This document shows positions 1,617-49,212 of a stretch of DNA of 64,000 nucleotides, one piece after another. Origin of the DNA: Candidatus Heimdallarchaeota archaeon B3_Heim (GTDB taxonomy: Archaea; Asgardarchaeota; Heimdallarchaeia; Hodarchaeales; Hodarchaeaceae); contig NJBF01000010.1 of assembly GCA_003144275.1 (NCBI GenBank), positions 27,861 to 91,860 on the forward strand, in the 5' to 3' direction. Below the pieces are notes generated by a model. The model saw only the letters and a list, made by a program, of their open reading frames with translations, was not told the origin of the DNA and ran no database searches. Numbering within the stretch: the stretch's first letter is position 1; every line of letters begins with the position of its first letter. Made by a program: the position numbers and the translations under genes.

Positions 1617-2360
1617 GTGAAATTAATGGATAGAGACTTTATATTAGCGAGAGAGGCACAATTAACATATTCTAATAATGCTGCATCGGGATTCAATCCA
1701 GTAGGAGAATCTCTTGTTCGTTGGCAAGGAACATTAACTTATACAACAAACAGGGGAAGGAATATGTTCACATTTGAGATTTTCCTCCCAGAGTACTTTC
1801 CCAATGTACCTCCAGTTGTAACTGCAATTGGGTGGATGGATCATCCAAATATTGATAAAGATGGATTTATTCAGTTACGGATTCTGGATAATTGGCGAGC
1901 GGAATTTCATCTCTACCAGGTGATTATTGCTTTAAAAAATCTCATGTCTCGTGTACCACCAACCCCACGCGGAGAAACAGCTAAGTCAGTACGCGATACT
2001 ATGGTGAGAATAACTGAACCAGCAATTGAAAACAGAGATTCTAGATCAGCTGCAGAAACAAAAGCATTACGTACAGAATTAACTGCGAAGAATGCTCAAT
2101 TAACTGCAAAGGATGAAGAATTGGCCAGATTAAGAGCTAGGTCCATGATGAGCTCCGAGGAGTCATCAAAGACTCTGAGAATGAAAGTTACCGATCAACA
2201 AGTGCTAGAATCTGAACGAATTGCCATTTCTGATCTCCTATCATCATTAGAAGATCGATATACTGCTGGTGAGATCTCAATCTTTGAATATTCACGTTTA
2301 TACAAGAAATATACCAAAGAGCTTTATTTACTCCGGAAACAGTTAGAATACTTGAGCTAG
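1617..2360 (+). CDS. ESCRT-I Vps23/TSG101-like protein: UEV (catalytically inactive E2 fold) domain plus a C-terminal coiled coil
   Basis: The N-terminal ~120 aa follow the TSG101 UEV layout (beta-hairpin 'tongue', conserved ...YFPNVPPVV...HPNIDKDGFIQLRILDNW... segment, no catalytic Cys). A long heptad coiled coil follows (TELTAKNAQLTAKDEELARLRAR). The gene sits in the ESCRT cluster. Confidence 0.55.
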   Translation: MKLMDRDFILAREAQLTYSNNAASGFNPVGESLVRWQGTLTYTTNRGRNMFTFEIFLPEYFPNVPPVVTAIGWMDHPNIDKDGFIQLRILDNWRAEFHLYQVIIALKNLMSRVPPTPRGETAKSVRDTMVRITEPAIENRDSRSAAETKALRTELTAKNAQLTAKDEELARLRARSMMSSEESSKTLRMKVTDQQVLESERIAISDLLSSLEDRYTAGEISIFEYSRLYKKYTKELYLLRKQLEYLS

Positions 2361-2369
2361 GTAAAAACA

Positions 2370-2990
2370 ATGTCATTTCCTCAAAACTTATCACACAGAT
2401 GGGATCTAGAAGCCCGATTATTTGCGAATATTGGGACTCTCGATTTAATTTCACGTACTTATGATCGTGGAGAGATCGATTCGAGTACATATCATAAACA
2501 GCATAGAACCCTTCTAACTAGTATTATAGAAACACGTGCAGAGTTAGAACAGTATAATTTTGATGTTGATAGATTTATTGAAGAAGAAGGAATTAGCCAA
2601 CTTTTCCCTTCGGGTCTTTCAAAACTCAAAATGACTGAAGGAGCCGGTGATAATGCCTATAGTCGAATTGATTATTCAAGCATAAAGAAACTTCCAACAA
2701 TTGCTGCGGAGTTTGTAGCAAATGCGATTGAATTACTAGATCTTCTACATTTAGAATCAATCGCAACTGTTGATCGAGTGTTACCCTATCTTGATGAAAT
2801 TCACGATATCTTAGTTAGAGTACCAATGTATGGAAATGATCATTGGGTAACACAGGACATAAATCAGTGGATTAACTGGATGGATAAACAAAAACCAGGA
2901 CAATTATTGAAAAACAAGGAGATTAAGAAATTAGAATTACAAGGTTCTCGCTGGCTTTCTGACTTCAGAAGGGAACTAAAAAATCTATAA
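2370..2990 (+). CDS. putative ESCRT-I Vps28-like helical protein
   Basis: 206 aa, predicted all-helical, starts 10 bp downstream of the UEV gene on the same strand. Size and position match Asgard Vps28 homologues. No diagnostic motif was recognised. Confidence 0.35.
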   Translation: MSFPQNLSHRWDLEARLFANIGTLDLISRTYDRGEIDSSTYHKQHRTLLTSIIETRAELEQYNFDVDRFIEEEGISQLFPSGLSKLKMTEGAGDNAYSRIDYSSIKKLPTIAAEFVANAIELLDLLHLESIATVDRVLPYLDEIHDILVRVPMYGNDHWVTQDINQWINWMDKQKPGQLLKNKEIKKLELQGSRWLSDFRRELKNL

Positions 2991-19733: not shown

Positions 19734-20234
19734 TTGTCCCTTGAAAAGAATGATGGGATACTCTTGGCTGTCCGTATACGAGAAATAACAGAAAACGATT
19801 TCACCGCGGTTCGAAAGATTTTTGTTGAATCCAGTAGCTTTCATGAACAGGTTGACTCAATATTTGCTTCTATTAAAGAGGCGGATCAAATATGGCTAAA
19901 TTATATTACTACTATTTTACAGCAGGATGATTTCAAAATCTACGTTGCGCTACACGGCGAACAGATTGTCGGTTTCTGTGTTGGTCAGATAATTGAAAAA
20001 CCGCCTATATATCAAGTGAAAAAAATTGGCCAGGTCAATAATATTGCCGTGAAAGAAGGCCATAAACGACAAGGGGTTGGTAAGGCATTATTAGAGACAA
20101 TAAAAGCTTGGTTCATGACTCAGCAGGTGAATCACATCGAACTATTAGTCGCTACAAATAATCCCCAATCTCTAGGGTTTTGGAAAAAAATGGGAGGGAG
20201 AGAGTTCATGAAAAAGATGGTTATTCGATTCTAA
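19734..20234 (+). CDS. GNAT-family N-acetyltransferase
   Basis: Acetyl-CoA binding motif A (Q/RxxGxG/A: RQGVGKALL) and typical GNAT beta-strand spacing. Confidence 0.7.
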   Translation: MSLEKNDGILLAVRIREITENDFTAVRKIFVESSSFHEQVDSIFASIKEADQIWLNYITTILQQDDFKIYVALHGEQIVGFCVGQIIEKPPIYQVKKIGQVNNIAVKEGHKRQGVGKALLETIKAWFMTQQVNHIELLVATNNPQSLGFWKKMGGREFMKKMVIRF

Positions 20235-20302
20235 GTCTTTACATGCAATAAATGTGAAAAAATTAAAAAAAAATAGGTGAAAAGAGGATTTCTATTCACT
20301 GA

Positions 20303-20878
20303 TTAAGACAAGATCTGGTCAACTTCAGGACGAGTGAGAACATACAAACTAAATATACCAAATATTGTCCCCATTGGCATTGCTAATAGACTGAGGACGC
20401 TGATGAGGATAGAACCAGAATGGCCATTTTTCTGATAATTCATTAAGCGACGGCCGTTGATGATTGCTAGAACGCCATAAATTAGGATAAATATGGCTAC
20501 AAACCCGAGAACAAGCATGATAAACAGGAAAATTCCATAAGAGTTTTCTAACGAGCCTGCAGGTACAGAAGACATTCCCTTAAATAGATCAGGCATTGAA
20601 ACCATAGTTTGGTCAGAGAAAAACATGGACATCAAGGCCGCAATGAGTCCAAGTATACCAGCAATTAACAAAGCGAAAACTCCGAAGATTACTTCTACTA
20701 TTCCAACCACTTGAATATATCCTCGGTATTCACTTGCATGAGATTTCGGGTCATTATAGGTTGAATATTTATGTGATGAATACTTTGATCCACATTCTTG
20801 GCAAAATAGATCCTCACTGCCTCCGGTAGATCCACAATTAGAGCAAATATATTTTGACATGATAGGTTCATCCTCCAA
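20303..20878 (-). CDS. zinc-ribbon membrane protein
   Basis: N-terminal CxxC...CxxC ribbon (CSNCGS...CQECGS) followed by 4 TM helices. Confidence 0.5.
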   Translation of the reverse strand: MEDEPIMSKYICSNCGSTGGSEDLFCQECGSKYSSHKYSTYNDPKSHASEYRGYIQVVGIVEVIFGVFALLIAGILGLIAALMSMFFSDQTMVSMPDLFKGMSSVPAGSLENSYGIFLFIMLVLGFVAIFILIYGVLAIINGRRLMNYQKNGHSGSILISVLSLLAMPMGTIFGIFSLYVLTRPEVDQILS

Positions 20879-21113
20879 TTTCTTTTTAGTTAAGGATGGT
20901 TGTGTATAAACACATGATTGAGACTTATTTAAGAATTAAGATAGGGGCGAAAATGCTCTCGTGAATATTAGCTTCAAGCGTTCAGAATATTTTTTCTAAT
21001 TCCGATCATGATTACCAGTTCAGTCATCAGTCTAATACATGAAAAAGACTTATTGAGTTATTGTAACTATTGTTCTTAGCTTTTCTGATTAGTAAACTTA
21101 TTTACATTTTTAC

Positions 21114-22658
21114 TTATATCTCAATTTCAACGGTAGGCTTTTTTTTCTGTTCTGTTTTTGATGCCAGTCGCGCTCGTGCCTGAACCCAGGTACGTAATGC
21201 CGTAATATCTTCCTTCATCAATCGGGATAGTGGAACCATATTTTCCAAGGCATTCATGATATCTGTGGTTTCGACTTCACGATCCTCAGAAAAAGCATCG
21301 AACATAGCTGTGATGAGGGTTTGTTCTATTTCTGCTCCGGAATAGCCTTTACTTAACCCAACCAGTGTTCTCATATCAAATTTTTCTGTTTCACGCCCTC
21401 TTTTCTTAATATGGATAGAGAAGATATCTTCACGTTCCTTTGGGGAAGGTAAGTCTAAAAAGAAGATTTCATCAAATCTACCTTTTCTCATGAGTTCAGG
21501 AGGCAATCGCTGGACATTATTGGCGGTTGCGATTACAAATACTGGTTTTTTCTTCTCTTGAAGCCAAGTAATAAAAGTCCCAAACACTCTGCTTGTTGTT
21601 CCTGCATCCGTAAGATTACTGGACTGTACTCCCGCAAATCCTTTCTCTATTTCATCAATCCATAGAATAGAAGGAGAAACAGATTCAGCTGTTTTTATAG
21701 CGTTCCGAATATTCTGTTCACTCTCACCAACAACTCCTCCAAACACCTTTCCTACATCAAATCGTAGTAAGGGTAATTTCCATAATGAAGCTACTGCTTG
21801 GGCAGTAAGCGATTTTCCTGTTCCAGGAATGCCAATCAACATCAGACCTGAGGGAAAGGGTAATCCATACTCTCTTGCTTTTTCAGTAAAGCCTCGATTA
21901 CGGATGGTTAACCATTCTTTTAAGTGTTCTAATCCTCCAATATTATCAAAGTGTTCGCTAGAATGATAATATTCCAGTATTCCTGATTTACGAATAATTT
22001 GTTCTTTTTCTTGGATTATAATTGCAGGGTCAAACCGTTTTACTTCGACAAGTGATTTGGCAAAGACATTTTCTGCCTCATCCACAGTAAGTCCAAGAGC
22101 TGATTTTAGGACAGCTTCCCTTTCTTCCTCGGTTAAACTGATATCAACTCTAGGATTCATTTTTAATGGTTCAATAATTCCTTCTAGAACAGTATCCAAT
22201 AGCTCTAAGGTTGGAAAATCAAAGTCGACAACATTAATCATTTTTTCTAATTCAATTGGTACTTCCAAAACTGGAGAAACAAGAATACATGTTTTTTTCA
22301 AATTATTAAGGTGAATTTTGAGGTCACGAAGTTTTCGAATAACCACTGGATCTTTCATAAAAGGATGAAAGTCTTTTAACATGAAGATCGCGGGCCTCGG
22401 GTAATCGGTAATGAATGTTAACGCAGCAAAAGGATCCACTGCTTCCCCATCCAATTTTTTACCTAGAAAATCCGAAAACCCTTCTGTCGTACTCCAAATG
22501 ATCAATTGTTTCTCTGATTTTACAGCAAGAGTATTCAACATAACAGCCACCCTTTCCTCTTCCCAAGTGGTGATATAGATGAGAGAGTAACGAGCACGAA
22601 TTAAAATATCAACCTTTTTTTGTTGATCCTCACTAACCTTTTTCATAGAGGTCACCAA
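21114..22658 (-). CDS. Ycf46-like AAA+ ATPase
   Basis: 514 aa with a ~250-aa N-terminal domain, then Walker A GIPGTGKSL and Walker B ILWIDEIEKGF, with sensor-1/arginine-finger regions. Length and layout match the Ycf46 family as I recall it. Confidence 0.7.
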   Translation of the reverse strand: MVTSMKKVSEDQQKKVDILIRARYSLIYITTWEEERVAVMLNTLAVKSEKQLIIWSTTEGFSDFLGKKLDGEAVDPFAALTFITDYPRPAIFMLKDFHPFMKDPVVIRKLRDLKIHLNNLKKTCILVSPVLEVPIELEKMINVVDFDFPTLELLDTVLEGIIEPLKMNPRVDISLTEEEREAVLKSALGLTVDEAENVFAKSLVEVKRFDPAIIIQEKEQIIRKSGILEYYHSSEHFDNIGGLEHLKEWLTIRNRGFTEKAREYGLPFPSGLMLIGIPGTGKSLTAQAVASLWKLPLLRFDVGKVFGGVVGESEQNIRNAIKTAESVSPSILWIDEIEKGFAGVQSSNLTDAGTTSRVFGTFITWLQEKKKPVFVIATANNVQRLPPELMRKGRFDEIFFLDLPSPKEREDIFSIHIKKRGRETEKFDMRTLVGLSKGYSGAEIEQTLITAMFDAFSEDREVETTDIMNALENMVPLSRLMKEDITALRTWVQARARLASKTEQKKKPTVEIEI

Positions 22659-22671
22659 TGTTCAGTATATG

Positions 22672-22890
22672 TTATCGTCTAGCTGTAACCCGAGTGGTGG
22701 CCTCTACTGGACGTTGATAGTAATCTCTCTTGAAGTCTCTATTTGTAACCTCGCCGAGGGCCTCATCAAGAAATCTGGTTGTTTCTGTACAGGATTTTCC
22801 TTTTACCCCATTCACTGTATATGAAATATCCCCTTTTTCATCAATAGTGATTTCTAATTCTATATTGTCAGCACTCATTGACCTACCCAC
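22672..22890 (-). CDS. small conserved hypothetical protein (DUF2997-like), co-transcribed with the AAA ATPase
   Basis: 72 aa. Its start overlaps the stop of the upstream DUF1257-like ORF by 16 bp, and it ends 14 bp before the AAA gene start. Confidence 0.4.
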   Translation of the reverse strand: MGRSMSADNIELEITIDEKGDISYTVNGVKGKSCTETTRFLDEALGEVTNRDFKRDYYQRPVEATTRVTARR

Positions 22891-23285
22891 CCTCGTTTAA
22901 CAACTAGTAATTTAATTTCCCCAATTTCATTGATATACCTTGATTTAATGCGATATCCCTTTTTCCTAAGTTCACCCAAAACTTTGGTGACTGCGTATTC
23001 CTTCTGGATTTCATTTGCAAATTGCCGTCGGTTTTTTCCAATCGCTGCTGCTGCGCCATACCAATCTGCTAAAATTTGATATGACGAATCTTTCGCTTTA
23101 ATGAAACCTACATCAAATTCTCCAGTTGTTTTGATAACAATATCCCCTTTTCGGGTTCTTCGATTATAACCTCTTATCGTCGAGTTCTCTTCTACTTCAT
23201 ATTGTAGATTTTCAAGGGTTTTCAATAGACAGTTTCTGTCTGTGATCTTTGTTTTAAGTTTTGTAAAATGTGACATGATTTTCAT
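22875..23285 (-). CDS. conserved hypothetical protein (DUF1257/Ycf35-like)
   Basis: 136 aa, first gene of a three-gene co-directional unit (this gene, the 72-aa ORF, the AAA ATPase). From memory, this family is the small protein encoded next to ycf46 in cyanobacterial operons. Confidence 0.4.
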   Translation of the reverse strand: MKIMSHFTKLKTKITDRNCLLKTLENLQYEVEENSTIRGYNRRTRKGDIVIKTTGEFDVGFIKAKDSSYQILADWYGAAAAIGKNRRQFANEIQKEYAVTKVLGELRKKGYRIKSRYINEIGEIKLLVVKRGWVGQ

Positions 23286-23463
23286 ACTCCTCTAATTGTT
23301 ACATTCATTGAGAGACACAGGTGTATTGATAAATTCAGAGACGGACTGAGTTAGGATGATGAATGCAAACTCTACGAAAAATTCGTTCGCATATCAGAGG
23401 AGCAATTTCATTGAGATTCGTATACGGATGACATGAAAGGTAGAATTTTTTACACTTTTTCAA

Positions 23464-23478
23464 CCCGTGTAACACGGG
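23464..23478. promoter_or_regulatory. perfect 15-bp palindrome CCCGTGTAACACGGG, candidate operator; a half-site repeat CCCGTGTAAC lies at 23664-23673
   Basis: Read directly. A 7-bp inverted repeat around a central A, with a second copy of the left half 200 bp downstream and about 25 bp upstream of the small RHH-like ORF. Confidence 0.35.
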
Positions 23479-23698
23479 ATACTACTCTCTTAGAAGTATG
23501 ATTTACTCTTTCCAAATGTTTTTCGTCATTTTCACTGACCTCTCCCATTTATGGCACACATGGGCTCACCAATCCCCCCCCATAACCACCACTCCAGCAC
23601 TAATCTTGGAAGTATTTAAATAAAAGAGAAAAAGTACCTGTTGACACGTCATTACCAGAAATACCCGTGTAACCTGGATTTGATGGGGATATTAAGAT

Positions 23699-23899
23699 AT
23701 GAGTACTCAGAAACGAGATCAACAGGGAAAATTTACGTCTGAAAATCCTAGAAGATTCATTATGAGAGTAACAGCCCAAGAAAAAAAATTAGTTGAAAAA
23801 TTCCGTCAAATAAAACCTTCTAAAAGTACTAATAATAATCACTCTTTAGAGGAACTTCAAGCCTTAATTCGTAAACGGGTCGACAATATAGAATTGTAA
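23699..23899 (+). CDS. small basic protein, possible ribbon-helix-helix DNA-binding protein
   Basis: 66 aa. RRFIMRVTAQEKKLVEKFRQ fits a beta-strand followed by a helix, as in the RHH/CopG/MobC-like N-terminus. Preceded by palindromic sites. Weak. Confidence 0.3.
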   Translation: MSTQKRDQQGKFTSENPRRFIMRVTAQEKKLVEKFRQIKPSKSTNNNHSLEELQALIRKRVDNIEL

Positions 23900-24279
23900 T
23901 ATTCAAGTATAAAATCAGTCTGAAACGTGAAATAACGGTGAATTTAAGAAGATAAGCGGGTATTATTGCTCCTCCTCAACAAGTGCTCCTAGATAGGTCA
24001 TGAATGGGAGGAACCAGCCTAGAAATCAAGCTACCGATGGGCAATATTTTGATTTCTGGGTCTTTATATGTATTGAATAGACTTCGCCGAATTTGAGTTT
24101 TTCATTTTCGGAAAAAATCACATTTTTTCGTCATTCTATAATGATTTTTGGGAGTGTATTAATGATTTAATATCAAGATGACCGAATATCAGAAAAAATC
24201 CTTTGTACCCCATTTTATTTCATAATGGGGATCTCTTATGGGGTAACAAACTTTTTCACACTCGTTATAAACCCCAATT

Positions 24280-26172
24280 TCAAGGGTTTCGCCGTTTTCT
24301 GATTACAGGAAAAACTGCTAGGACTAGTAACAAATATGTAAAGCCTGGAGAGATGGTAGGAGTTGTTGGTTCTGTTGTGGTGGTAACTGTGGATTTTTCC
24401 GTGGTTGATATAATTTCAGAAGTTGTTGTATTTGTTGTAGTGGTGGTCGTTGATGTTGTGGTGTTCGTCGTGGATACATGTTCAGAAGCATCATATACAA
24501 TACTTAGCAGTTCTACTTGAAAATAGAGATCTCCATCACCATATGCCTCTTCTGAGAGTATAGTGAAATTCTTTACCTGATTGATTGCCATGCCAATTAA
24601 CGCTTCTTCAAATTTTAGGAGGAAAGCAGAGCGGGCTTCTGGATAAAAAGCTAGTATATCAGGGGGGACAGTTTGTTCTATGGAGAGATAGATATTGTTT
24701 AGTTCGACATTTGTATATCCAGGAACTTCAACACTATAATTGTTATCTTCATATAATGTATGACGGACATTGACAATATCTCCCCAATCGGCAGTATTTT
24801 CTTGGGGTTGATCAGACCAAGCAATGGCTGTATAAGTTGGATCATGATAGATTTCTCCACCGTACCATTCTGGAAATTCTGTAAACGTCAAATAAAGGAA
24901 TTGGTTTACCACTTCAGTGTGTTGGCCTGCTCCTGGAAGTACGATATTTGGTGCTATTTTAGATGCCACAAACACGGTAGATGACCAAGCAAGCGAAAGT
25001 TCTACCGTAAAATATGCTTTTGCTACATTGGTGAATGTCCAACCACTTGGATCAAACAAAGTAACGTATACATCACGATTTACGTCAGGATCAATGTTGA
25101 AGGGGGCGAAATCTAACTCTCTAAGTTTGTAGGTCATCTTATCCTTAAAACTAGTCCAAAAGAATACATTACCATTGTTTTCAACGTCAATTGTTGGATT
25201 TTCTGGATCATCTAAGTGAGTAGCATATTGAGGATTGCTAACTGTCTCTACATCAAACCAGTTTGTGGCAGTGATAACAGTCAAACCAAAGGCATCAGCC
25301 CTGCTCATTCTTAGTTTGGCATCATTCTCAATATAGAACGCCATTTCTGGTAGAGTAATGCTTACACTGTCCGGAAATATCCCTGAACTTCCATATGTAC
25401 TCATATCAATACCTTGTAAAGCAGCAGGAACATCTAGAGTATAGCTGGGGGATTCTATAAAAGGAGAGCCTTCCCAAATCCCTGCGTTGGCAGCAATAAA
25501 GGCAGCATCATCACCTATCGTCGCAAAGAAACTTGATTCACCGATGTGATACTTTGTCTCAACTGTTCCTAGATTGATTGTAATTGCAGGAGTGGTTGGT
25601 AATTCAATCTCTTCTACCTCAAATGAGTATTCAAATGCAAGATGATCAAGAACTGAAACAGCCACAATATCTTGCCCATATATATTACCTTTAGTATCTG
25701 GAAGCTGCAAACCAGCTGCACTGAGGATATCTGGCCCTCTCAGTTCCACATCAACATCTTGCCATAAAACTAACATATTAGTATAATTGATTCCAAAGTT
25801 ATACCCTGTTACAGTTTGTTCAAAGCTAGCTTCATAATCAAAGTGAGGAATTCGATAGGAAGTATGAGGAGCTAAGTTAGCGTTTAACGCATCAGCCAAT
25901 TCTTGAACTGCAAACGTATATCCCATATAGAGATTATTGCCACTATCCATTCGTAAGGAATCTGCACCAGTACTTTTGGAATAAGCAATTAATCCCATAA
26001 AATTGTTTGTTACGAAAGCCTCAGTCCCCCAAGGAGTATTGTAGTGTTGAACTAATTGCTGGAAGGGGGCTGTTGCATTGACATGGAATATATTTGACTC
26101 AAGAGCTGCAGATGAACCTGGTAAGAGAGAATCCCCAAGAGCCTCGAGAATGGTAACTACATCAAGAGGCAA
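24280..26172 (-). CDS. cell-surface (S-layer-like) protein with a Thr-rich linker and PGF-CTERM sorting signal; N-terminal part apparently supplied by 26173..26508
   Basis: C-terminus is ...TTTSTTTTTTNTTTSEIISTTEKSTVTTTTEPTTPTISPGFTYLLLVLAVFPVIRKRRNP (PGF + TM helix + basic tail). The predicted start is a TTG immediately after an in-frame TAA. No signal peptide at this N-terminus. Confidence 0.6.
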   Translation of the reverse strand: MPLDVVTILEALGDSLLPGSSAALESNIFHVNATAPFQQLVQHYNTPWGTEAFVTNNFMGLIAYSKSTGADSLRMDSGNNLYMGYTFAVQELADALNANLAPHTSYRIPHFDYEASFEQTVTGYNFGINYTNMLVLWQDVDVELRGPDILSAAGLQLPDTKGNIYGQDIVAVSVLDHLAFEYSFEVEEIELPTTPAITINLGTVETKYHIGESSFFATIGDDAAFIAANAGIWEGSPFIESPSYTLDVPAALQGIDMSTYGSSGIFPDSVSITLPEMAFYIENDAKLRMSRADAFGLTVITATNWFDVETVSNPQYATHLDDPENPTIDVENNGNVFFWTSFKDKMTYKLRELDFAPFNIDPDVNRDVYVTLFDPSGWTFTNVAKAYFTVELSLAWSSTVFVASKIAPNIVLPGAGQHTEVVNQFLYLTFTEFPEWYGGEIYHDPTYTAIAWSDQPQENTADWGDIVNVRHTLYEDNNYSVEVPGYTNVELNNIYLSIEQTVPPDILAFYPEARSAFLLKFEEALIGMAINQVKNFTILSEEAYGDGDLYFQVELLSIVYDASEHVSTTNTTTSTTTTTTNTTTSEIISTTEKSTVTTTTEPTTPTISPGFTYLLLVLAVFPVIRKRRNP

Positions 26173-26508
26173 TTAATCTCGAAAAGTTATCCATTGTTCC
26201 AATTTTTCTAAGGCTGAATAAGACAATTCAATCCCAGATCTATTCACATAATTCATATAGAATTGGAGATCAGTTTCAGGGACTGAATCTGTTCCTTCCA
26301 CTCCAGATCCAAGATCGTAAATTACATCAGGGTTAGCCGCATTTGGGTAAAGATCAATTTCAACAGCAAAGTGATCTTCACTGAAATTATGACCAGCATA
26401 ATCGGTTGCTTCACTAATAGTGAAATACGGACTAATTAACGCTAGAATACAGAAAATAACTAAGAAGAAAGACTTAGGGTTTCTCATATTTTTTTCTCTC
26501 AACCACAT
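26173..26508 (-). pseudogene. signal-peptide-bearing N-terminal fragment in the same frame as 24280..26172, separated by a single TAA
   Basis: MRNPKSFFLVIFCILALISPYFTISEA is a clear Sec signal peptide. The stop at 26173-26175 is in frame with, and directly abuts, the downstream 630-aa ORF. Possible disrupted gene, readthrough or sequencing error. Confidence 0.45.
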
Positions 26509-26781
26509 TCTATCTAGAAAATTTGCTCAAAATAATTTGTTCAAAACAATATTTGATCTCTATTAAAAGGTTTTTTTCTATTACGTGAATCCCTATTAAC
26601 AAAATCTTACGGTGGGTATATCAATCTCTCTTCTCTACGAAGTATCCTTATTCTATTATCCAATGTGATGTTTTTTTAACGGATTTCACAGTTTAGCATT
26701 TATTATAAGCTCGAGGGAAACCCTCTCCTTATGCAAGGACTTAGCCCCAAAGTGGCAATCAATGGGAGAGAATATTAATTT

Positions 26782-29165: not shown

Positions 29166-30461
29166 ATGGCAGCTGGCAAAACTGATTTATTATATATTTT
29201 TTTAGGATTGGTTCTTACTATATCTGTTTTTGCGTCTGGAACAGGAAAAATTACCCAGATTACAACAAATGTGCAGATTCCATCAGTAGGGTTGGTTGGG
29301 ACATGGATGGATGACACAGGATATAATGAAACATTTGAAATTGTCAATGAAAATGCTACCCATTTCATATTAGATATTTATGGAAATGATACAATTCCCA
29401 TTACCTCTTATGTTAGTAAAGCTGTATGGATTGATTATTCGTATCTATGGGAAGGAATTATGGGGTGGCCAGGCTGGATTAGTGTTAATGGGTTAACCAT
29501 AGGAGAAAAAGTAACAGTAGGTGATTCATCCTTTGAAGTTGTTAGCGTAGATTACCTCACCACCCCGTTAGGCACATATTCAGTTTATATAGTTAATGCA
29601 ACGGACGGTCGTTCTTATAATTATGGCGTGAACACTGGATTTCTGCTTGGATACCGTTCTGGTTCTAGTTTCCACTTTCTTACCGCAACCAACGGAGATT
29701 TGAGTAAGGATTCTTACCAAGGCGGTGTCCACGTTCCTTTTGTGGGTTTTCGTGCTGTTTATCTACTGGATGGAGGTGTCAATGAAACTGTCGTGATTAC
29801 AGGGGAGAATTCTTCCCATTATTTCGTAGATCTGTTTACTGATGGGATTCTCATTGATCAGTCCTTTATTTCTAAATTCATTTGGATGGATCGAGTGTAT
29901 CTATGGAATGGAATTATGGGGTGGCCTATTTGGATCAATGTCACGGATTTAACTCTCGGTCAAAATGTAACACTCGGTATAGAAAGCTATGAGGTTATCG
30001 ATAAGACTAGCCTTACGGTACCGGTTGGTGATTTTGTAGTGTGGAATATATCAAGAACACTAGAAAATAGGACGTATTGGTATGAAGTTAGCTCCGGCCT
30101 TCTTATTGCCTATGCCTTCCCTAATGAATATCACTACCTTGCTGCTACTAATGCAGTTAATGAAACAGAATCTACAACCACTGAACCGCTAACTACTACA
30201 TCTCCTCCTACAACTACTACACCGGGAACAGAAACTACAACCACTGAACCTGAAACGACAGAACCACTAATCAGTTCTACTACGACTGCCTCCTCGGAAG
30301 ATTCTACGAGTGATGAATCTGAAACTACCACTTCAGAAAGTGATTCATCCATAACAAACGATTCCACTGTTCCTTCACTCTCACCAGGCTTTTCTCTTCC
30401 TGTAGGACTAATAACTATCGGGATAATATTTCGGATAATTAGGAATCGTAAAAAGAAATAA
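29166..30461 (+). CDS. secreted glycoprotein candidate with an internal tandem duplication, Thr/Ser-rich linker and PGF-CTERM anchor
   Basis: Signal peptide (LLYIFLGLVLTISVFASG). Two homologous ~95-aa units (VWIDYSYLWEGIMGWPGWISVNGLTIGEKVTVG... / IWMDRVYLWNGIMGWPIWINVTDLTLGQNVTLG...). More than 10 NxS/T sequons. C-terminus ...TTTEPLTTTSPPTTTTPGTETTTTEPETTE...SLSPGFSLPVGLITIGIIFRIIRNRKKK. Confidence 0.65.
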   Translation: MAAGKTDLLYIFLGLVLTISVFASGTGKITQITTNVQIPSVGLVGTWMDDTGYNETFEIVNENATHFILDIYGNDTIPITSYVSKAVWIDYSYLWEGIMGWPGWISVNGLTIGEKVTVGDSSFEVVSVDYLTTPLGTYSVYIVNATDGRSYNYGVNTGFLLGYRSGSSFHFLTATNGDLSKDSYQGGVHVPFVGFRAVYLLDGGVNETVVITGENSSHYFVDLFTDGILIDQSFISKFIWMDRVYLWNGIMGWPIWINVTDLTLGQNVTLGIESYEVIDKTSLTVPVGDFVVWNISRTLENRTYWYEVSSGLLIAYAFPNEYHYLAATNAVNETESTTTEPLTTTSPPTTTTPGTETTTTEPETTEPLISSTTTASSEDSTSDESETTTSESDSSITNDSTVPSLSPGFSLPVGLITIGIIFRIIRNRKKK

Positions 30462-43614: not shown

Positions 43615-46600
43615 ATGGCAACCCGAAACGAAAAACTGGTTCGGATAGAGCTTCCCTCTACTTCTGGGGTAGAAGTTGAGATTAGAGAAAGCAGAGATCG
43701 GTACGTACTGAATTTTTTCCAGAATGATAGACAAATAAATACCGCTTCTCTCTCTCAAAACAAGCTTAATCAGGATAGGCTAGTGGATCTCTTAAGTGAG
43801 GCCGGAGTGGAATTTTTTAGTTTTTCTGCAATATTTGAAATCGCTGATCTACTTGTGAATACAATTAAAGATGAATTTCAAGCTTTTTCCATAGAAGATG
43901 AACCTGCTTCAACTCCAATAACGCATGATGTTAATGATGTGACTGAAAAGTTCGGTATACTAACTGAAGATGTACTAGAAGAGGAGGATGAGATTGTTGA
44001 AGATACAGTCTCAGCAACATCAAGTAAGATTCTGACAATTCCTCCTGGAGATAAAGAACTAAAAAAGATCAAAATGCTACACTCGAAATCAGGATTTGCC
44101 ACAATATATTATACTCCCGAAGGAAAATTTGCTATAGTCTTATCTCGCAATGATGAATTGTTACTGAGAAAAGTCTATTCTAAAGACGATGTAAATCAAG
44201 ACAAGGTTGTAGAATTAATCAGTGAATCAGGAATTGATTTTCTTTCCTTTTCTGCAATATATGATTCTGCAGAGCAAATTGAATCACTAATCTTAAATCC
44301 AGAGAAATTTGAATCAGAAGATACTGTCTCAATTCCTCAAATGGACACTATAGTTGATGTCGCTGATCCTTCACCTATTTTAAAGTCGAAATCAGCAGCT
44401 ACCTCAGAACAAGATGAAGTGACACTCGTTGATTTATCCGATTTTGATACGTCTGAATTCAATAAGGCTGATGATTTTGATAAATTTATCAACAAGGTTA
44501 AAGAAGTCGTAGAAGTAGGACAACCTCTTCCTGTTAAGGAAGTGGAGATTGCTCATTCGGGTGGAGTGGATTGTATTATCCTCAGAAAATTTGATGATTG
44601 GTTTTTACGTTTTCGCAAGTCTGATGGTTCAATATCTGCCCCTACAGAAATAAAAATTGATCAGGATGAAATCGCTCGTCTGATAAATCAGGAAATCCCC
44701 CAAATTTCTTTTAGTTACTTGTATGATGCTTCAGAATTGATTTTTCAAACTATTGGTGGTTTAGCAACAAAGCCAATGGACCAAATCATCATTAATGTGG
44801 CTGTTGGTCACTTCTTAAGAATTATTGAACAGAATGAAGCAAAGGGGAATCTTAAAGCCGCATCGAAAATCACTGAGGTTTTGCTTAAGCGTTTTCGTAA
44901 AGAAAACAATTCTAAGGGTATTCTACGATTTGGGAGAAAACTTGTAAAGTCTCTGATAGATCAAGGAAAAGATTCCAAAGTTGTGAAGCTCCAATCTGAA
45001 TTGATCTCAGATCTACTCAAAATTGATTTGGAATCATCTGTTGAATTCGTATTTGAATCTATAGAGATGCTGGCCGATCAAAATAAACATCTTAATGCAG
45101 CTAATTTATGTGATTTAGTTTTGGATTACTACTTGTCTGAAAAAATAGTACCTGATTCAATATCAACAATCTTACTCTTAGCTAAAAAACAAGCGGAGTA
45201 TTATAAGCATGCTCGACTACCAGTAGTAATGTGGGAGAATGCTCTTCGTTATGCCCACTTTGCCCTAAAAGAGATAGGAGCAAGTGGGGACACATTCTCA
45301 AAGGAACAAAGAGATGGATTCTTGGAGGACATTATTTTCTTAGTTGACTCTGCACTGGGAGTACAAGAAGAACGTAAAGCTAATTTTGAAATTCTGAGCA
45401 CGCTTGAAGAGACAACACAATTATTAAAAGAGATTCAAGAAAAATCCCATTATCAAAGATACGTTAATCGATTAATCCTCACCTTGGAGACTCAGGGAAA
45501 GAAGGAAAAAGCTTTAGAAATCACATTGGAAGCTTCAAAAGCACTAATGAATTCAGAAACATATGTAAAAGCGTGTGAACTTAGTAATCAAGCAATAAAA
45601 TTGTTTTATGAATTGAAAAAGGTTGAAGAAGCTGTTGATTTTAGTCTTGGAGTAGTGAGGGGACTCACTGAATTAGAAGAAATAGAGGCTGCAAAAAATT
45701 ATTTGCAGTTTGTTGAAGATCTCATTAGTAAAGCATACAAAGATAGTGATTCTCGTCGAATAGAAAAACAGCTCGCAATGGGCGATTTACTGGGGAAATT
45801 AGGGATGAAAGATCGCGCTAAATCCTTTATTCAGACCGCTCTTCAAACAATTGCAGATCCTAAGAAAAGGGAGAAAATTGTTCTGAAATATGTAGATGAA
45901 ATGCATGTGAGTCATGCTTTTCTTACCGCTCAAGAGATGATTAATTTAGAATTATCTCGGTTGTTGGAAACAAAGAAAATAAAGGATGTAATAAAATTTT
46001 GTTGCCAATTTATAGACAAATTAAGAGAGTATGGCCAAAGCGATATGATTTTCGAATATATTCGGTACATCTCTAGTTTAATGTTACAGTCAGATCATAG
46101 TGATTATAATTTACTGCAGAAGTTCATAAAAGATCTATTGACAACGAATGAGGTTGATAGAGCGGCGTTAATCTTGGATCAGCTAGTAATCCTCCAAGGT
46201 AAACAAAGTGATTATACGAGAGCAATTGATTCAATAAGTCGTTTTGTTGACCATCTTTTGGAAAGTACTCAAAGAGTCGATCTTGTCCAAAAATACGTTT
46301 TTGAGATTGCTGAAGCTTATAGACGGATGGGAGACGATCAAGGAGCGCTCGAAGTGTTGGTAAAATATCAGGAAGTCCTACTTGATTATTCAGTTGAATT
46401 ATCACAGAAAATTACTGACATCATACTAAAAGAATATGAGGCAAAAGAAGAGTATAAGAAATGTATAGAAATTGTGACTAACATCATTGATAGGCAATTA
46501 GAACAGAACATGTTTCAAGACGCATACATTTTTAGTGTTCAAAATGCTCGTTATATAGAGAGCTCTGGCAGCATTCCTGATGTCATCAAATATCTCGGAA

Positions 46601-49212
46601 AAATGAGAAATAGATTTTTAGAATTTGACAGGTTTGAAGACGCAGCTAAAATGACCGATTTAATATTTAGATTCGGTAAAACTCATCAACAATACAAGAT
46701 CGCCATCCAATCAATAAAAGAATATGCAAAAATTACTCTAGATAACGAAGACTATTTATCTGCTATCAAATTCGCTCTTAATGTCGCAAATCTCTTTGAG
46801 GAAGACAATAAACCAGATAAAGCACTTGAATTTCTTCATATGATATTCAATATTACTTTTAAACATATCAAAGAGCCTTCTCTTCAAGTATTTCGCAAGA
46901 TAATAGAAATTCATCGCGAGAAAGATGACTTCAAGAAAATCACAAAGAAAGTCGTTGATCCGTTATTAACAAAATATCCAGATGTCGCGCTACTTACGGT
47001 CGTGAATGAGGTTCTTTCTCCTCCACTCGGGGATTACATTAAGTATTCTGAAAAGTTCTTTGATCAACTAATTGAATCTTCTTCATTAACCTTTGACAGT
47101 GCAGATGGTATAATTTCATTAGTTAACCTTGTGTATGGAAGTGCGTTTGTAGATCTAGGAGATAGGTTGGTATATAAATACACAAATAAACTGACAGAGT
47201 TCGGTTTTGCTGTTGAGGCAATGAAATTAATGTCAATATTGTCAGAAAGATCAAGTTTACCATTTTCGGATCTTTTAAATAAATCTCTGGACTTCGTTCA
47301 AAATTTAGTTCAAAAAACTAACATTGAAAAAGCAAGAGAGTTTACAGATAAGTTGATTCAACATATTACAACTAACCCTGAACTATCTGCAGAGAAAAAT
47401 CACCTAGGAGCAAAAGTCAGTGATAAATTTGCACAAATGGTAGCGTTTGAGAATCCTGATCTAGCCTCAGAGTATGCTTATCTTGCTGCAGATTATCTAC
47501 GAGGAGCAAATGACTTTGATGGAGTAGTTACTATCTATAATAATCTCGCAACTCAATATTCATCCTCAAAAAGAGCCATTCGTACATTTGAGAGAGGAAT
47601 ATACATTTGTAGTAAATTTAAGGCCAAAAAACACGAAGCACAACTACTAGTTTTACTCACAAAATACCTTTGCACTATTTCAGACGACTCTGTTTTAGCA
47701 GCTTTTCAACAAACAATAGAAAAACTGGAAGAATTGGAGGATCTGGATGAACTCTTCAGAAATTGTTGTGAGATAATTACCGTGGCAATTTCAACTGATA
47801 ATCTTAATCTCGTATCAAGATATCTAGAATATATGAGTAAATTAGCCAATATGATAAACCGTTCAGAGGATATAGGTGGAATTCTGGTTTTCATGTTAAA
47901 TTACGTTACTGACATAAACGATACTGAGAAAGCAAAGAAAATTAGAAATAATATTGAGGAATTGGGTATACAGCCCAAGAAATTTAAGAAGGACTTTAAA
48001 CGCCTTTCAGAAGAACGTAGCAACTTTTTGAAGTCAAAATCAGTAAAAGACAGACAATTAATCGAAGTTGAAGCAGTAACTCCAACTTTGGTTAACACAG
48101 AGGAAATAATTACACCGATTGAAGAACCCCTTTTAGATAAAGTCATTGAGCCCGATACCGAAGAAGAAGATAAAGAGATTGTCGATTTCATTAAAGGAAT
48201 CAAATCAGAATCACCACTACCAGAACAAATGGAAACTCCACAGGTAATTCAAGAACCAGAACCTCAAATCTCTCAATTATTGGAAGATAAACCATCTTTG
48301 AAGGGGCAACCGCAAATAAGCGGTGAAGTTTTGGAAATCCCTCCGAAAGAGGATGGGACCGAAGTATCCACCATACTGAGTGATGATGAAGTTTCGAGCT
48401 TATTTTCACTTGATCCTTCCCCTGAAGAGGTTTCACAAGTGTCATCATCAATTGAAGAAGAATTATTCCCTGAAGTTGGCCAACATGGCAAAGAAGGTGT
48501 AACACTATCCGATAATGAAGTAACCACACTGTTTAGCGCTCGAGAAGATTCCAAAATGAGGGGAGCTGATGTGTTACGATCACTGTCTGAACAAGAACCC
48601 TCTGCTAGTGAGGAAGAATGGGAAGTCGATACATTTGGGCGTTTATTGAAAAAAGAAGCAACAACTCCTTCACCAGATAAAATCAGTGAACCTAAACCAG
48701 TAATATCTCCTACTATTGTTGAAGATACGTCTGGAACTCCAGATATAAGTACTCTAGAATCATCCTATAAACCCAAAGAAGAAGTAGTAAAACCCACCCA
48801 ATTAAAGTCGCTTCAATTAGAACCTGATTTGGAAAGTGAGAAAAAGAAACAGCTTCAAAGTCTACCTGATCTTGAAGAATTAGAAATGGCGCTAGTAGAT
48901 ACAGAGAGCGTGTTACCTCCTAGACACGAACCAGAACCAACTGAAGAAACGAAAAGTCTGTTCGATAAAGACATAACCAGTTCTTTAGACTCTGTTGTGG
49001 ATGCCCTTGTTGAAGACGAATCTGGTGACACACAAGATATCTTTGGAATTCCAGAAGTGTCCTACGAGGAAATCTCCGAACCACAAACTTCAAAACCAGC
49101 TGAAGTGAAACCACCTGATTTAATAGATTTATTTTCAGACGCGTTATCTGAATTAGGATCAATAACTGGGGAATCTGGAAAGAAAGGCAAGGAAAAGAAG
49201 AAAAAGAAGTAG
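43615..49212 (+). CDS. giant (1865 aa) protein: triplicated N-terminal domain, long alpha-helical solenoid, acidic disordered C-terminal tail ending in a poly-Lys stretch
   Basis: Uninterrupted 5.6-kb ORF. Three N-terminal repeats share the core ...(F/I)(F/L)SFSAI(F/Y)(E/D)... (aa ~60-80, ~200-220, ~355-375). aa ~400-1450 are helical. aa ~1480-1865 are P/E/S/D-rich with repeated [ST]LF motifs and a terminal KKGKEKKKKK. Confidence 0.8.
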   Translation: MATRNEKLVRIELPSTSGVEVEIRESRDRYVLNFFQNDRQINTASLSQNKLNQDRLVDLLSEAGVEFFSFSAIFEIADLLVNTIKDEFQAFSIEDEPASTPITHDVNDVTEKFGILTEDVLEEEDEIVEDTVSATSSKILTIPPGDKELKKIKMLHSKSGFATIYYTPEGKFAIVLSRNDELLLRKVYSKDDVNQDKVVELISESGIDFLSFSAIYDSAEQIESLILNPEKFESEDTVSIPQMDTIVDVADPSPILKSKSAATSEQDEVTLVDLSDFDTSEFNKADDFDKFINKVKEVVEVGQPLPVKEVEIAHSGGVDCIILRKFDDWFLRFRKSDGSISAPTEIKIDQDEIARLINQEIPQISFSYLYDASELIFQTIGGLATKPMDQIIINVAVGHFLRIIEQNEAKGNLKAASKITEVLLKRFRKENNSKGILRFGRKLVKSLIDQGKDSKVVKLQSELISDLLKIDLESSVEFVFESIEMLADQNKHLNAANLCDLVLDYYLSEKIVPDSISTILLLAKKQAEYYKHARLPVVMWENALRYAHFALKEIGASGDTFSKEQRDGFLEDIIFLVDSALGVQEERKANFEILSTLEETTQLLKEIQEKSHYQRYVNRLILTLETQGKKEKALEITLEASKALMNSETYVKACELSNQAIKLFYELKKVEEAVDFSLGVVRGLTELEEIEAAKNYLQFVEDLISKAYKDSDSRRIEKQLAMGDLLGKLGMKDRAKSFIQTALQTIADPKKREKIVLKYVDEMHVSHAFLTAQEMINLELSRLLETKKIKDVIKFCCQFIDKLREYGQSDMIFEYIRYISSLMLQSDHSDYNLLQKFIKDLLTTNEVDRAALILDQLVILQGKQSDYTRAIDSISRFVDHLLESTQRVDLVQKYVFEIAEAYRRMGDDQGALEVLVKYQEVLLDYSVELSQKITDIILKEYEAKEEYKKCIEIVTNIIDRQLEQNMFQDAYIFSVQNARYIESSGSIPDVIKYLGKMRNRFLEFDRFEDAAKMTDLIFRFGKTHQQYKIAIQSIKEYAKITLDNEDYLSAIKFALNVANLFEEDNKPDKALEFLHMIFNITFKHIKEPSLQVFRKIIEIHREKDDFKKITKKVVDPLLTKYPDVALLTVVNEVLSPPLGDYIKYSEKFFDQLIESSSLTFDSADGIISLVNLVYGSAFVDLGDRLVYKYTNKLTEFGFAVEAMKLMSILSERSSLPFSDLLNKSLDFVQNLVQKTNIEKAREFTDKLIQHITTNPELSAEKNHLGAKVSDKFAQMVAFENPDLASEYAYLAADYLRGANDFDGVVTIYNNLATQYSSSKRAIRTFERGIYICSKFKAKKHEAQLLVLLTKYLCTISDDSVLAAFQQTIEKLEELEDLDELFRNCCEIITVAISTDNLNLVSRYLEYMSKLANMINRSEDIGGILVFMLNYVTDINDTEKAKKIRNNIEELGIQPKKFKKDFKRLSEERSNFLKSKSVKDRQLIEVEAVTPTLVNTEEIITPIEEPLLDKVIEPDTEEEDKEIVDFIKGIKSESPLPEQMETPQVIQEPEPQISQLLEDKPSLKGQPQISGEVLEIPPKEDGTEVSTILSDDEVSSLFSLDPSPEEVSQVSSSIEEELFPEVGQHGKEGVTLSDNEVTTLFSAREDSKMRGADVLRSLSEQEPSASEEEWEVDTFGRLLKKEATTPSPDKISEPKPVISPTIVEDTSGTPDISTLESSYKPKEEVVKPTQLKSLQLEPDLESEKKKQLQSLPDLEELEMALVDTESVLPPRHEPEPTEETKSLFDKDITSSLDSVVDALVEDESGDTQDIFGIPEVSYEEISEPQTSKPAEVKPPDLIDLFSDALSELGSITGESGKKGKEKKKKK

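Follow-up and report, generated by a model that had tools for sequence, protein, structure and literature searches.

The question raised by this locus is whether two neighbouring open reading frames (ORFs) of Candidatus Heimdallarchaeota archaeon B3_Heim represent two genes or a single gene split by a stop codon and, if the latter is the case, whether this stop codon is real. The window, that is the whole stretch of 64,000 nucleotides (nt) of contig NJBF01000010.1 that was analysed, carries on its minus strand an upstream ORF (26508..26173) of 111 amino acids (aa) counted from its first ATG, which ends with TAA at 26175..26173. This stop codon is directly abutted by a TTG codon (26172..26170), which opens a 630-codon ORF in the same frame with the stop codon TGA at 24282..24280. 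The upstream ORF begins with a typical signal peptide, MRNPKSFFLVIFCILALISPYFTISEA, followed by TDYAGH. The N-terminus of the 630-codon ORF, LPLDVVTILEALGDS..., is acidic and not signal-like, and its C-terminus consists of a Thr-rich stalk, the motif SPGF, a hydrophobic helix and the basic tail RKRRNP. This layout, including the missing signal peptide of the 630-aa ORF and its ending in a Thr-rich stalk and an anchor, had been described in a sequence-only reading of the window and was borne out by direct inspection of the letters. In GenBank, the locus is split into two hypothetical proteins of this archaeon: PWI48681.1 (hypothetical protein CEE45_05575, 104 aa), which is the upstream ORF read from the ATG at 26487, and PWI48680.1 (hypothetical protein CEE45_05570), which is identical to the 630-aa product and annotated from the TTG at 26172. 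Comparison with homologous sequences indicates that the two ORFs are almost certainly one gene disrupted by a point change, and the two-protein entry is an artefact of the internal stop.

The evidence for a single gene comes from the homologues. A search with the fused sequence yielded 67 of them, nearly all from metagenome-assembled genomes (MAGs) of the Hodarchaeales or the Heimdall group, all continuous proteins and many bearing the name 'Heimdall-CTERM domain-containing surface protein'. Their identity to the window protein amounts to 40-79% (E=0), end to end across the ectodomain. For the alignment, the window protein and 54 homologues were used (55 sequences). All 54 homologues are continuous across the junction and have an N-terminal signal peptide of their own, and the column of the stop codon is occupied by Leu in 45, Phe in 7, Ile in 1 and Val in 1 of them. 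The window protein departs from this family of uninterrupted ORFs with a signal peptide by a TAA at codon 105 (counted from the ATG at 26487) and by a signal peptide that is located on the upstream fragment only. Invariant alignment columns, the window protein included, lie on both sides of the stop, 11 in the upstream ORF (F47, A48, E50, D52, P60, D65, D80, N89, S98, A99 and E101) and 53 in the downstream ORF, 64 altogether. The same holds for N-glycosylation sequons, of which N89 is present in 53 and N144 in all 54 homologues. The 111-aa ORF is therefore homologous to the N-terminus of the very protein family to which the 630-aa ORF belongs, so that the adjacency of the two is not a matter of chance. 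Short database proteins covering the N-terminus only were considered as independently conserved small genes, and this was ruled out: they are contig-end or frameshifted fragments, none of which ends at the FRD position. The proposal of one gene with a single internal stop is thereby upheld, and separate conservation of the two ORFs in relatives was not found.

At the level of codons, a sense codon occupies the stop site in all 54 proteins and in each of 25 related loci that were compared (TTA in 5, TTG in 3, CTN in 15 and TTC in 2 loci; no stop in any), which is the orthologue comparison that the sequence-only reading had called for. The closest non-syntenic relatives, with 68-78% identity (L002, L003, L006, L007 and L008), read GAT TTA followed by TTG, CTG or TTA, where the window reads GAT TAA TTG; a single T-to-A transversion at 26174 is therefore enough to create the stop. 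The syntenic orthologue (locus L001, protein P0002), which shares the DUF4037 and Ldh neighbours with the window and is 79% identical in amino acids and 83% in nucleotides, has CTG at this site. L001 has stops where the window has its first ATG (26508). It is thus the second ATG, at 26487, that is conserved as the start, which gives the gene a length of 735 codons. Of the formerly claimed 742-codon gene, the single gene thus stands and its length does not. The interrupted gene and its upstream region are composed of the following parts:

26509..26700, minus strand: upstream promoter and 5' leader region, with about 90% identity to L001 and about 95% to L030, a scaffold described below.
26407..26487, minus strand: ATG start (26487..26485) and 27-aa Sec-type signal peptide MRNPKSFFLVIFCILALISPYFTISEA, according to the homologues and the start of PWI48681.1.
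26176..26406, minus strand: first 77 residues of the mature ectodomain, cut off 5' of the stop, as seen from invariant columns, the N89 sequon and an AlphaFold2 (AF2) model.
26173..26175, minus strand: in-frame TAA lesion at the place of a Leu codon in relatives, from the codon comparison across 25 loci.
24817..26172, minus strand: rest of the conserved beta-rich ectodomain core (residues 113-564 of the fused protein), from homology (E=0), invariant columns and the AF2 model.
24475..24816, minus strand: extra C-terminal module of about 114 aa, found in the long subfamily only and weakly FKBP-like (sub-threshold).
24352..24474, minus strand: Thr-rich low-complexity stalk, read directly from the sequence.
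24280..24351, minus strand: C-terminal sorting or anchor signal of SPGF, hydrophobic helix and RKRRNP, followed by TGA (24282..24280).

The signal peptide in this list has its equivalent, with a basic n-region, a hydrophobic core and a cleavage motif ending in A, in 54 of 54 homologues.

With a premature stop relative to intact orthologues, the gene shows one mark of a nonsense pseudogene, and its remaining sequence was inspected for traces of age. The ratio of nonsynonymous to synonymous substitution rates (dN/dS) against L001, determined by the Nei-Gojobori method, is 0.20 for the part before the stop and 0.24 for the part after it. Across 162 near-invariant columns of the family, the window protein deviates at 17 and the intact orthologue at 16. 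The identity of the upstream region to L001 and L030 exceeds the 83% found between the coding sequences of the window gene and L001. In none of these three comparisons (dN/dS, near-invariant columns and conservation of the upstream region) was any decay seen besides the stop itself. With dN/dS near 0.2 to either side of it, the stop is either a very young lesion or an error.

The reading favoured here is a genuine, very recent loss-of-function allele within the sequenced population, in which the conserved Leu codon 105, TTA in several family members, would have been converted to TAA via one T-to-A transversion. Translation from the ATG at 26487 would then stop after 104 residues and yield the signal peptide plus a 77-residue fragment. 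Re-initiation at the TTG would lead to a 630-residue cytoplasmic product, for which neither Sec export nor N-glycosylation nor processing of the C-terminal sorting signal would be expected. Since this re-initiated product would lack a signal peptide, the surface protein would presumably be lost on either route. On balance, the stop is considered probably real and not a consensus error.

The strongest competitor is a sequencing or consensus error, under which the organism would carry TTA (Leu) at 26175..26173 and an undamaged gene, the stop being confined to the MAG contig as deposited. Such an error is possible, if rather doubtful. It would agree with a lone lesion in an otherwise perfectly conserved gene, in which all 64 invariant columns are kept, dN/dS stays near 0.2 before and after the stop, the promoter region shows conservation and no surplus of deviations over the intact orthologue is seen; moreover, the consensus bases of a metagenome-assembled genome may derive from minor or mixed strains. 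Against it stands a contig that is not generally error-prone, as no further split gene occurs among the approximately 54 long ORFs in the 64 kb. In addition, a substitution error in a short-read consensus is a rare event next to the real nonsense alleles that occur in populations of prokaryotes.

A further argument against an error is the apparent deletion of the gene in a sibling population, which suggests that its loss is tolerated. L030, a 621-nt ENA scaffold from sample SAMN18200497, shares about 95% nt identity with the window over the upstream region and the first 44 codons. Past codon 44 it joins the 3' end of a GNAT acetyltransferase gene (91% aa identity), which lies about 6.1 kb off in the window, so that L030:1-621 aligns to window positions 19990-20234 and 26356-26684. 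If this scaffold is not chimeric, there appears to be a deletion of about 6.1 kb (window ~20270-26355) in the sibling population, by which the rest of the surface gene, a 66-aa ORF, DUF1257, an AAA ATPase and a 191-aa ORF are removed. Under the same proviso, the deletion would be an independent inactivation of the gene and mildly favours a real loss. Lesions at different positions were found in other family loci as well, namely an internal deletion with a change of frame in L022, a frameshift in L025 and an in-frame stop in L026; these may be assembly errors or may reflect recurrent decay of this surface-protein family.

Several points count against the stop being real. The data fit a base-call or consensus error just as well, and under an error, too, no other decay would be expected. 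L030 is a single scaffold of 621 nt and could be chimeric. A second assembly of the same population was not found in scans of genome and metagenome contigs, which gave at most 72% identity. The exact-protein contig look-up for the 630-aa product returned no record, cluster look-ups returned only the GenBank entries and one 46-aa fragment, and a further homologue search, for which the query was 194 aa with the stop in the middle, revealed no near-identical fragment. Among the three options that had been put forward for this locus, recent pseudogenisation and sequencing error consequently both fit the data, whereas stop-codon readthrough gained no support. Either way, this is ordinary gene inactivation or a base-call error and no new biological mechanism.

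Programmed or tolerated readthrough of the UAA, by near-cognate or suppressor decoding, would still provide some full-length surface protein and is regarded as very improbable. The frame is fully kept and shows no decay downstream of the stop, as readthrough would demand, but a recent mutation predicts the same equally. A stop at this site is found in none of the homologous proteins and loci compared (0 of 54 and 0 of 25), its context TAAT is the joint commonest four-base stop context in the window, and RNA folding of 115 nt at and downstream of the stop does not surpass that of shuffled sequences (z=0.28). The window contains no tRNA, no Rfam element and no second gene with an in-frame stop. 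UAA is generally the least leaky stop codon, and no recoding of UAA is known in archaea. Read with the standard code, the window is dense in coding sequence, and TAA terminates 23 of the 54 long ORFs. There are six other pairs of long ORFs that share a frame and are one stop apart. In most of them, each ORF is a gene of its own with a complete Pfam domain unrelated to that of the other (UEV/Vps28, AIM24/M20 peptidase and TrmI/JAB, for example), and the remaining pairs consist of a complete gene and a non-coding open stretch or an ORF without family; the underlying Pfam scan within the window covered 18 ORFs. Recoding and readthrough were rejected on these grounds, that is stop-codon usage, the other same-frame pairs, the RNA fold and the tRNA and Rfam scans of the window. 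If true, this would have been the first functional UAA readthrough in an Asgard archaeon, with a low level of full-length surface protein.

Scarcely credible, finally, is the presence of two functional genes, one for a small secreted protein of 77 aa and one for a 630-aa protein started at the TTG by coupling of termination and re-initiation. The stop does abut the TTG directly (TAATTG), like coupled junctions in archaeal operons, and two proteins stand in the GenBank annotation, but no relative has the split arrangement. Moreover, the 630-aa product would have no signal peptide despite features that depend on export (conserved sequons, a stalk and a C-terminal sorting signal), and the 77-residue fragment is predicted as four beta-strands continuing into the remainder of the ectodomain and is no obvious stand-alone protein.

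The favoured reading remains an inactivated gene, and its product, when intact, is predicted from sequence features to be a surface protein that is secreted, N-glycosylated and anchored at its C-terminus, from a small family restricted to the Hodarchaeales/Heimdall group (89 representatives among 1.84 billion). The anchor had been assigned to the PGF-CTERM type. A PGF-like tripeptide, a hydrophobic helix and a basic tail are present at the extreme C-terminus (SPGF-TYLLLVLAVFPVI-RKRRNP). The PGF-CTERM model (TIGR04126) is not among the NCBIfam matches at E<=1, provided that the library (release 20.0) contains it; TIGR04216, the model for halobacterial S-layer glycoproteins, scored 13.5 bits against a cut-off of 400. 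The labels PGF-CTERM and halobacterial S-layer are thus unsupported by the NCBIfam scores. The anchor is instead Heimdall-CTERM-like, with a sub-threshold score of 12.4 bits for NF045529 (E=0.17, cut-off 24), and the relatives of the protein are Heimdall-CTERM surface proteins: the approximately 600-aa relatives P0003, P0010, P0031 and P0053 pass NF045529 at 25.9-30.1 bits, while the long-form proteins P0019 and P0059 fail. A literature search found no paper mentioning 'Heimdall-CTERM', and the papers found to cite B3_Heim deal with ESCRT, ubiquitin or actin and not with the interrupted surface gene.

For structure prediction, the intact orthologue P0002 was modelled in place of the stop-bearing window protein. 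In the AF2 model, residues 28-555 mostly reach a predicted local distance difference test (pLDDT) score of 75-95, with 80-95 in the core, and the 77-residue stretch is predicted as four beta-strands with pLDDT 81-90. No known fold was recognised: the family profile found no match among PDB sequences, and a Foldseek search of the PDB produced no significant hit. The window protein groups with P0002 and P0019 in a long subfamily that has the extra module of about 114 aa and the Thr-rich stalk. This module resembles a divergent FKBP-type peptidyl-prolyl isomerase domain, which would be unusual on an extracellular stalk; all scores are sub-threshold, with 15.1 and 19.4 bits for Pfam FKBP_C (cut-off 21.1), and a profile of the three sequences matched in the PDB only the archaeal FKBP 1ix5_A (E=0.023).

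In several Hodarchaeales MAGs, an approximately 600-aa family member (L002:949-1981, L004:657-1691) is located within a conserved block together with a helix-turn-helix protein, an unknown protein of ~530-557 aa, an unknown protein of ~786-853 aa and a HerA/DUF87 ATPase, a few kb from Roadblock/LC7 and ARPC4 homologues. As this context differs from the DUF4037/Ldh context in the window, the long form is probably a paralogous lineage.

Other genes of the window were noted as well. The gene at 29166 had been taken for an intact, paralogue-like copy of the interrupted gene. This was rejected, as the best BLASTP match between the two has E=0.027 over 55 residues and only the architecture of stalk and SPGF anchor is shared. 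The gene (window 29166-30461, plus strand) encodes a predicted surface protein of 431 aa with two tandem domain copies of about 150 aa (...YLWEGIMGWPGWI... and ...YLWNGIMGWPIWI...), followed by a Thr/Ser-rich stalk and an anchor of SPGF, transmembrane helix and basic tail. Neither Pfam nor NCBIfam gave a match for it, and it bears no relation to the ectodomain of the interrupted gene. At 1617-2990 (plus strand), the adjacent genes for a UEV/ubiquitin-conjugating-like domain protein and a Vps28 homologue constitute the ubiquitin/ESCRT-I cluster that is known from this group of Asgard genomes; although they share a frame, with TAG and 9 nt between them, they are clearly distinct genes. Furthermore, a very large ORF of 1865 aa was observed at 43615-49212 (plus strand).

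The result is useful as an annotation correction. PWI48681.1 and PWI48680.1 merit merging and flagging as a pseudogene or possible error, which would keep the truncated forms of B3_Heim, a widely used Asgard genome, out of protein-family and phylogenomic datasets. If the stop is real, it hints, together with the apparent deletion in L030, that the long-form surface glycoprotein is dispensable and turns over fast in this lineage, which is typical for surface proteins and raises no new question.

Among known systems, the closest to the window protein are the Heimdall-CTERM surface proteins of about 600 aa (NF045529; P0003, P0010 and P0031, for example). They show full-length homology with 40-79% identity and have in common with it the signal peptide, a beta-rich ectodomain with the invariant motifs NATAPFQQLVQH and WYGGEIxHD, and a C-terminus of PGF, transmembrane helix and RKRR. 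The window gene differs from them by the internal TAA, the extra module of about 114 aa, the Thr-rich stalk and an NF045529 score of 12.4 instead of at least the 24 bits of the cut-off. Archaeosortase A substrates such as the S-layer glycoprotein HVO_2072 of Haloferax volcanii likewise combine a signal peptide, a glycosylated ectodomain, a Thr-rich stalk, PGF, a transmembrane helix and a basic tail; there is no homology to them in the ectodomain, and the likeness is one of layout and not of membership.

From cultured Hodarchaeales, the N-glycosylated putative S-layer proteins KTGHC1_P6247 and KTGSC1_P0196 have been described, which are glycosylated mainly near the N-terminus and conserved across many Promethearchaeota lineages (bioRxiv 10.1101/2025.02.26.640444). 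Compared by description only, they belong to the same archaeal order as the window protein and are N-glycosylated surface proteins, as the window protein with its conserved sequons N89 and N144 is predicted to be. In contrast to their wide conservation across Promethearchaeota, the window family has only its 89 representatives. An S-layer role of the window protein is possible.

With regard to the lesion, archaeal stop-codon recoding (UAG-pyrrolysine and UGA-selenocysteine) shares with the window gene an in-frame stop inside a conserved ORF, whereas the codon in the window is UAA, is conserved in no relative, is accompanied by no recoding element and is a unique case in the window. Ordinary nonsense pseudogenes and split-gene annotation artefacts of prokaryotic genomes and MAGs show the same single sense-to-stop change, and from such loci gene callers produce two neighbouring same-frame 'hypothetical proteins', as they did here. 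Compared with ordinary nonsense pseudogenes, the lesion in the window would be very young, with no relaxed selection visible, and otherwise there is nothing to set it apart from them.

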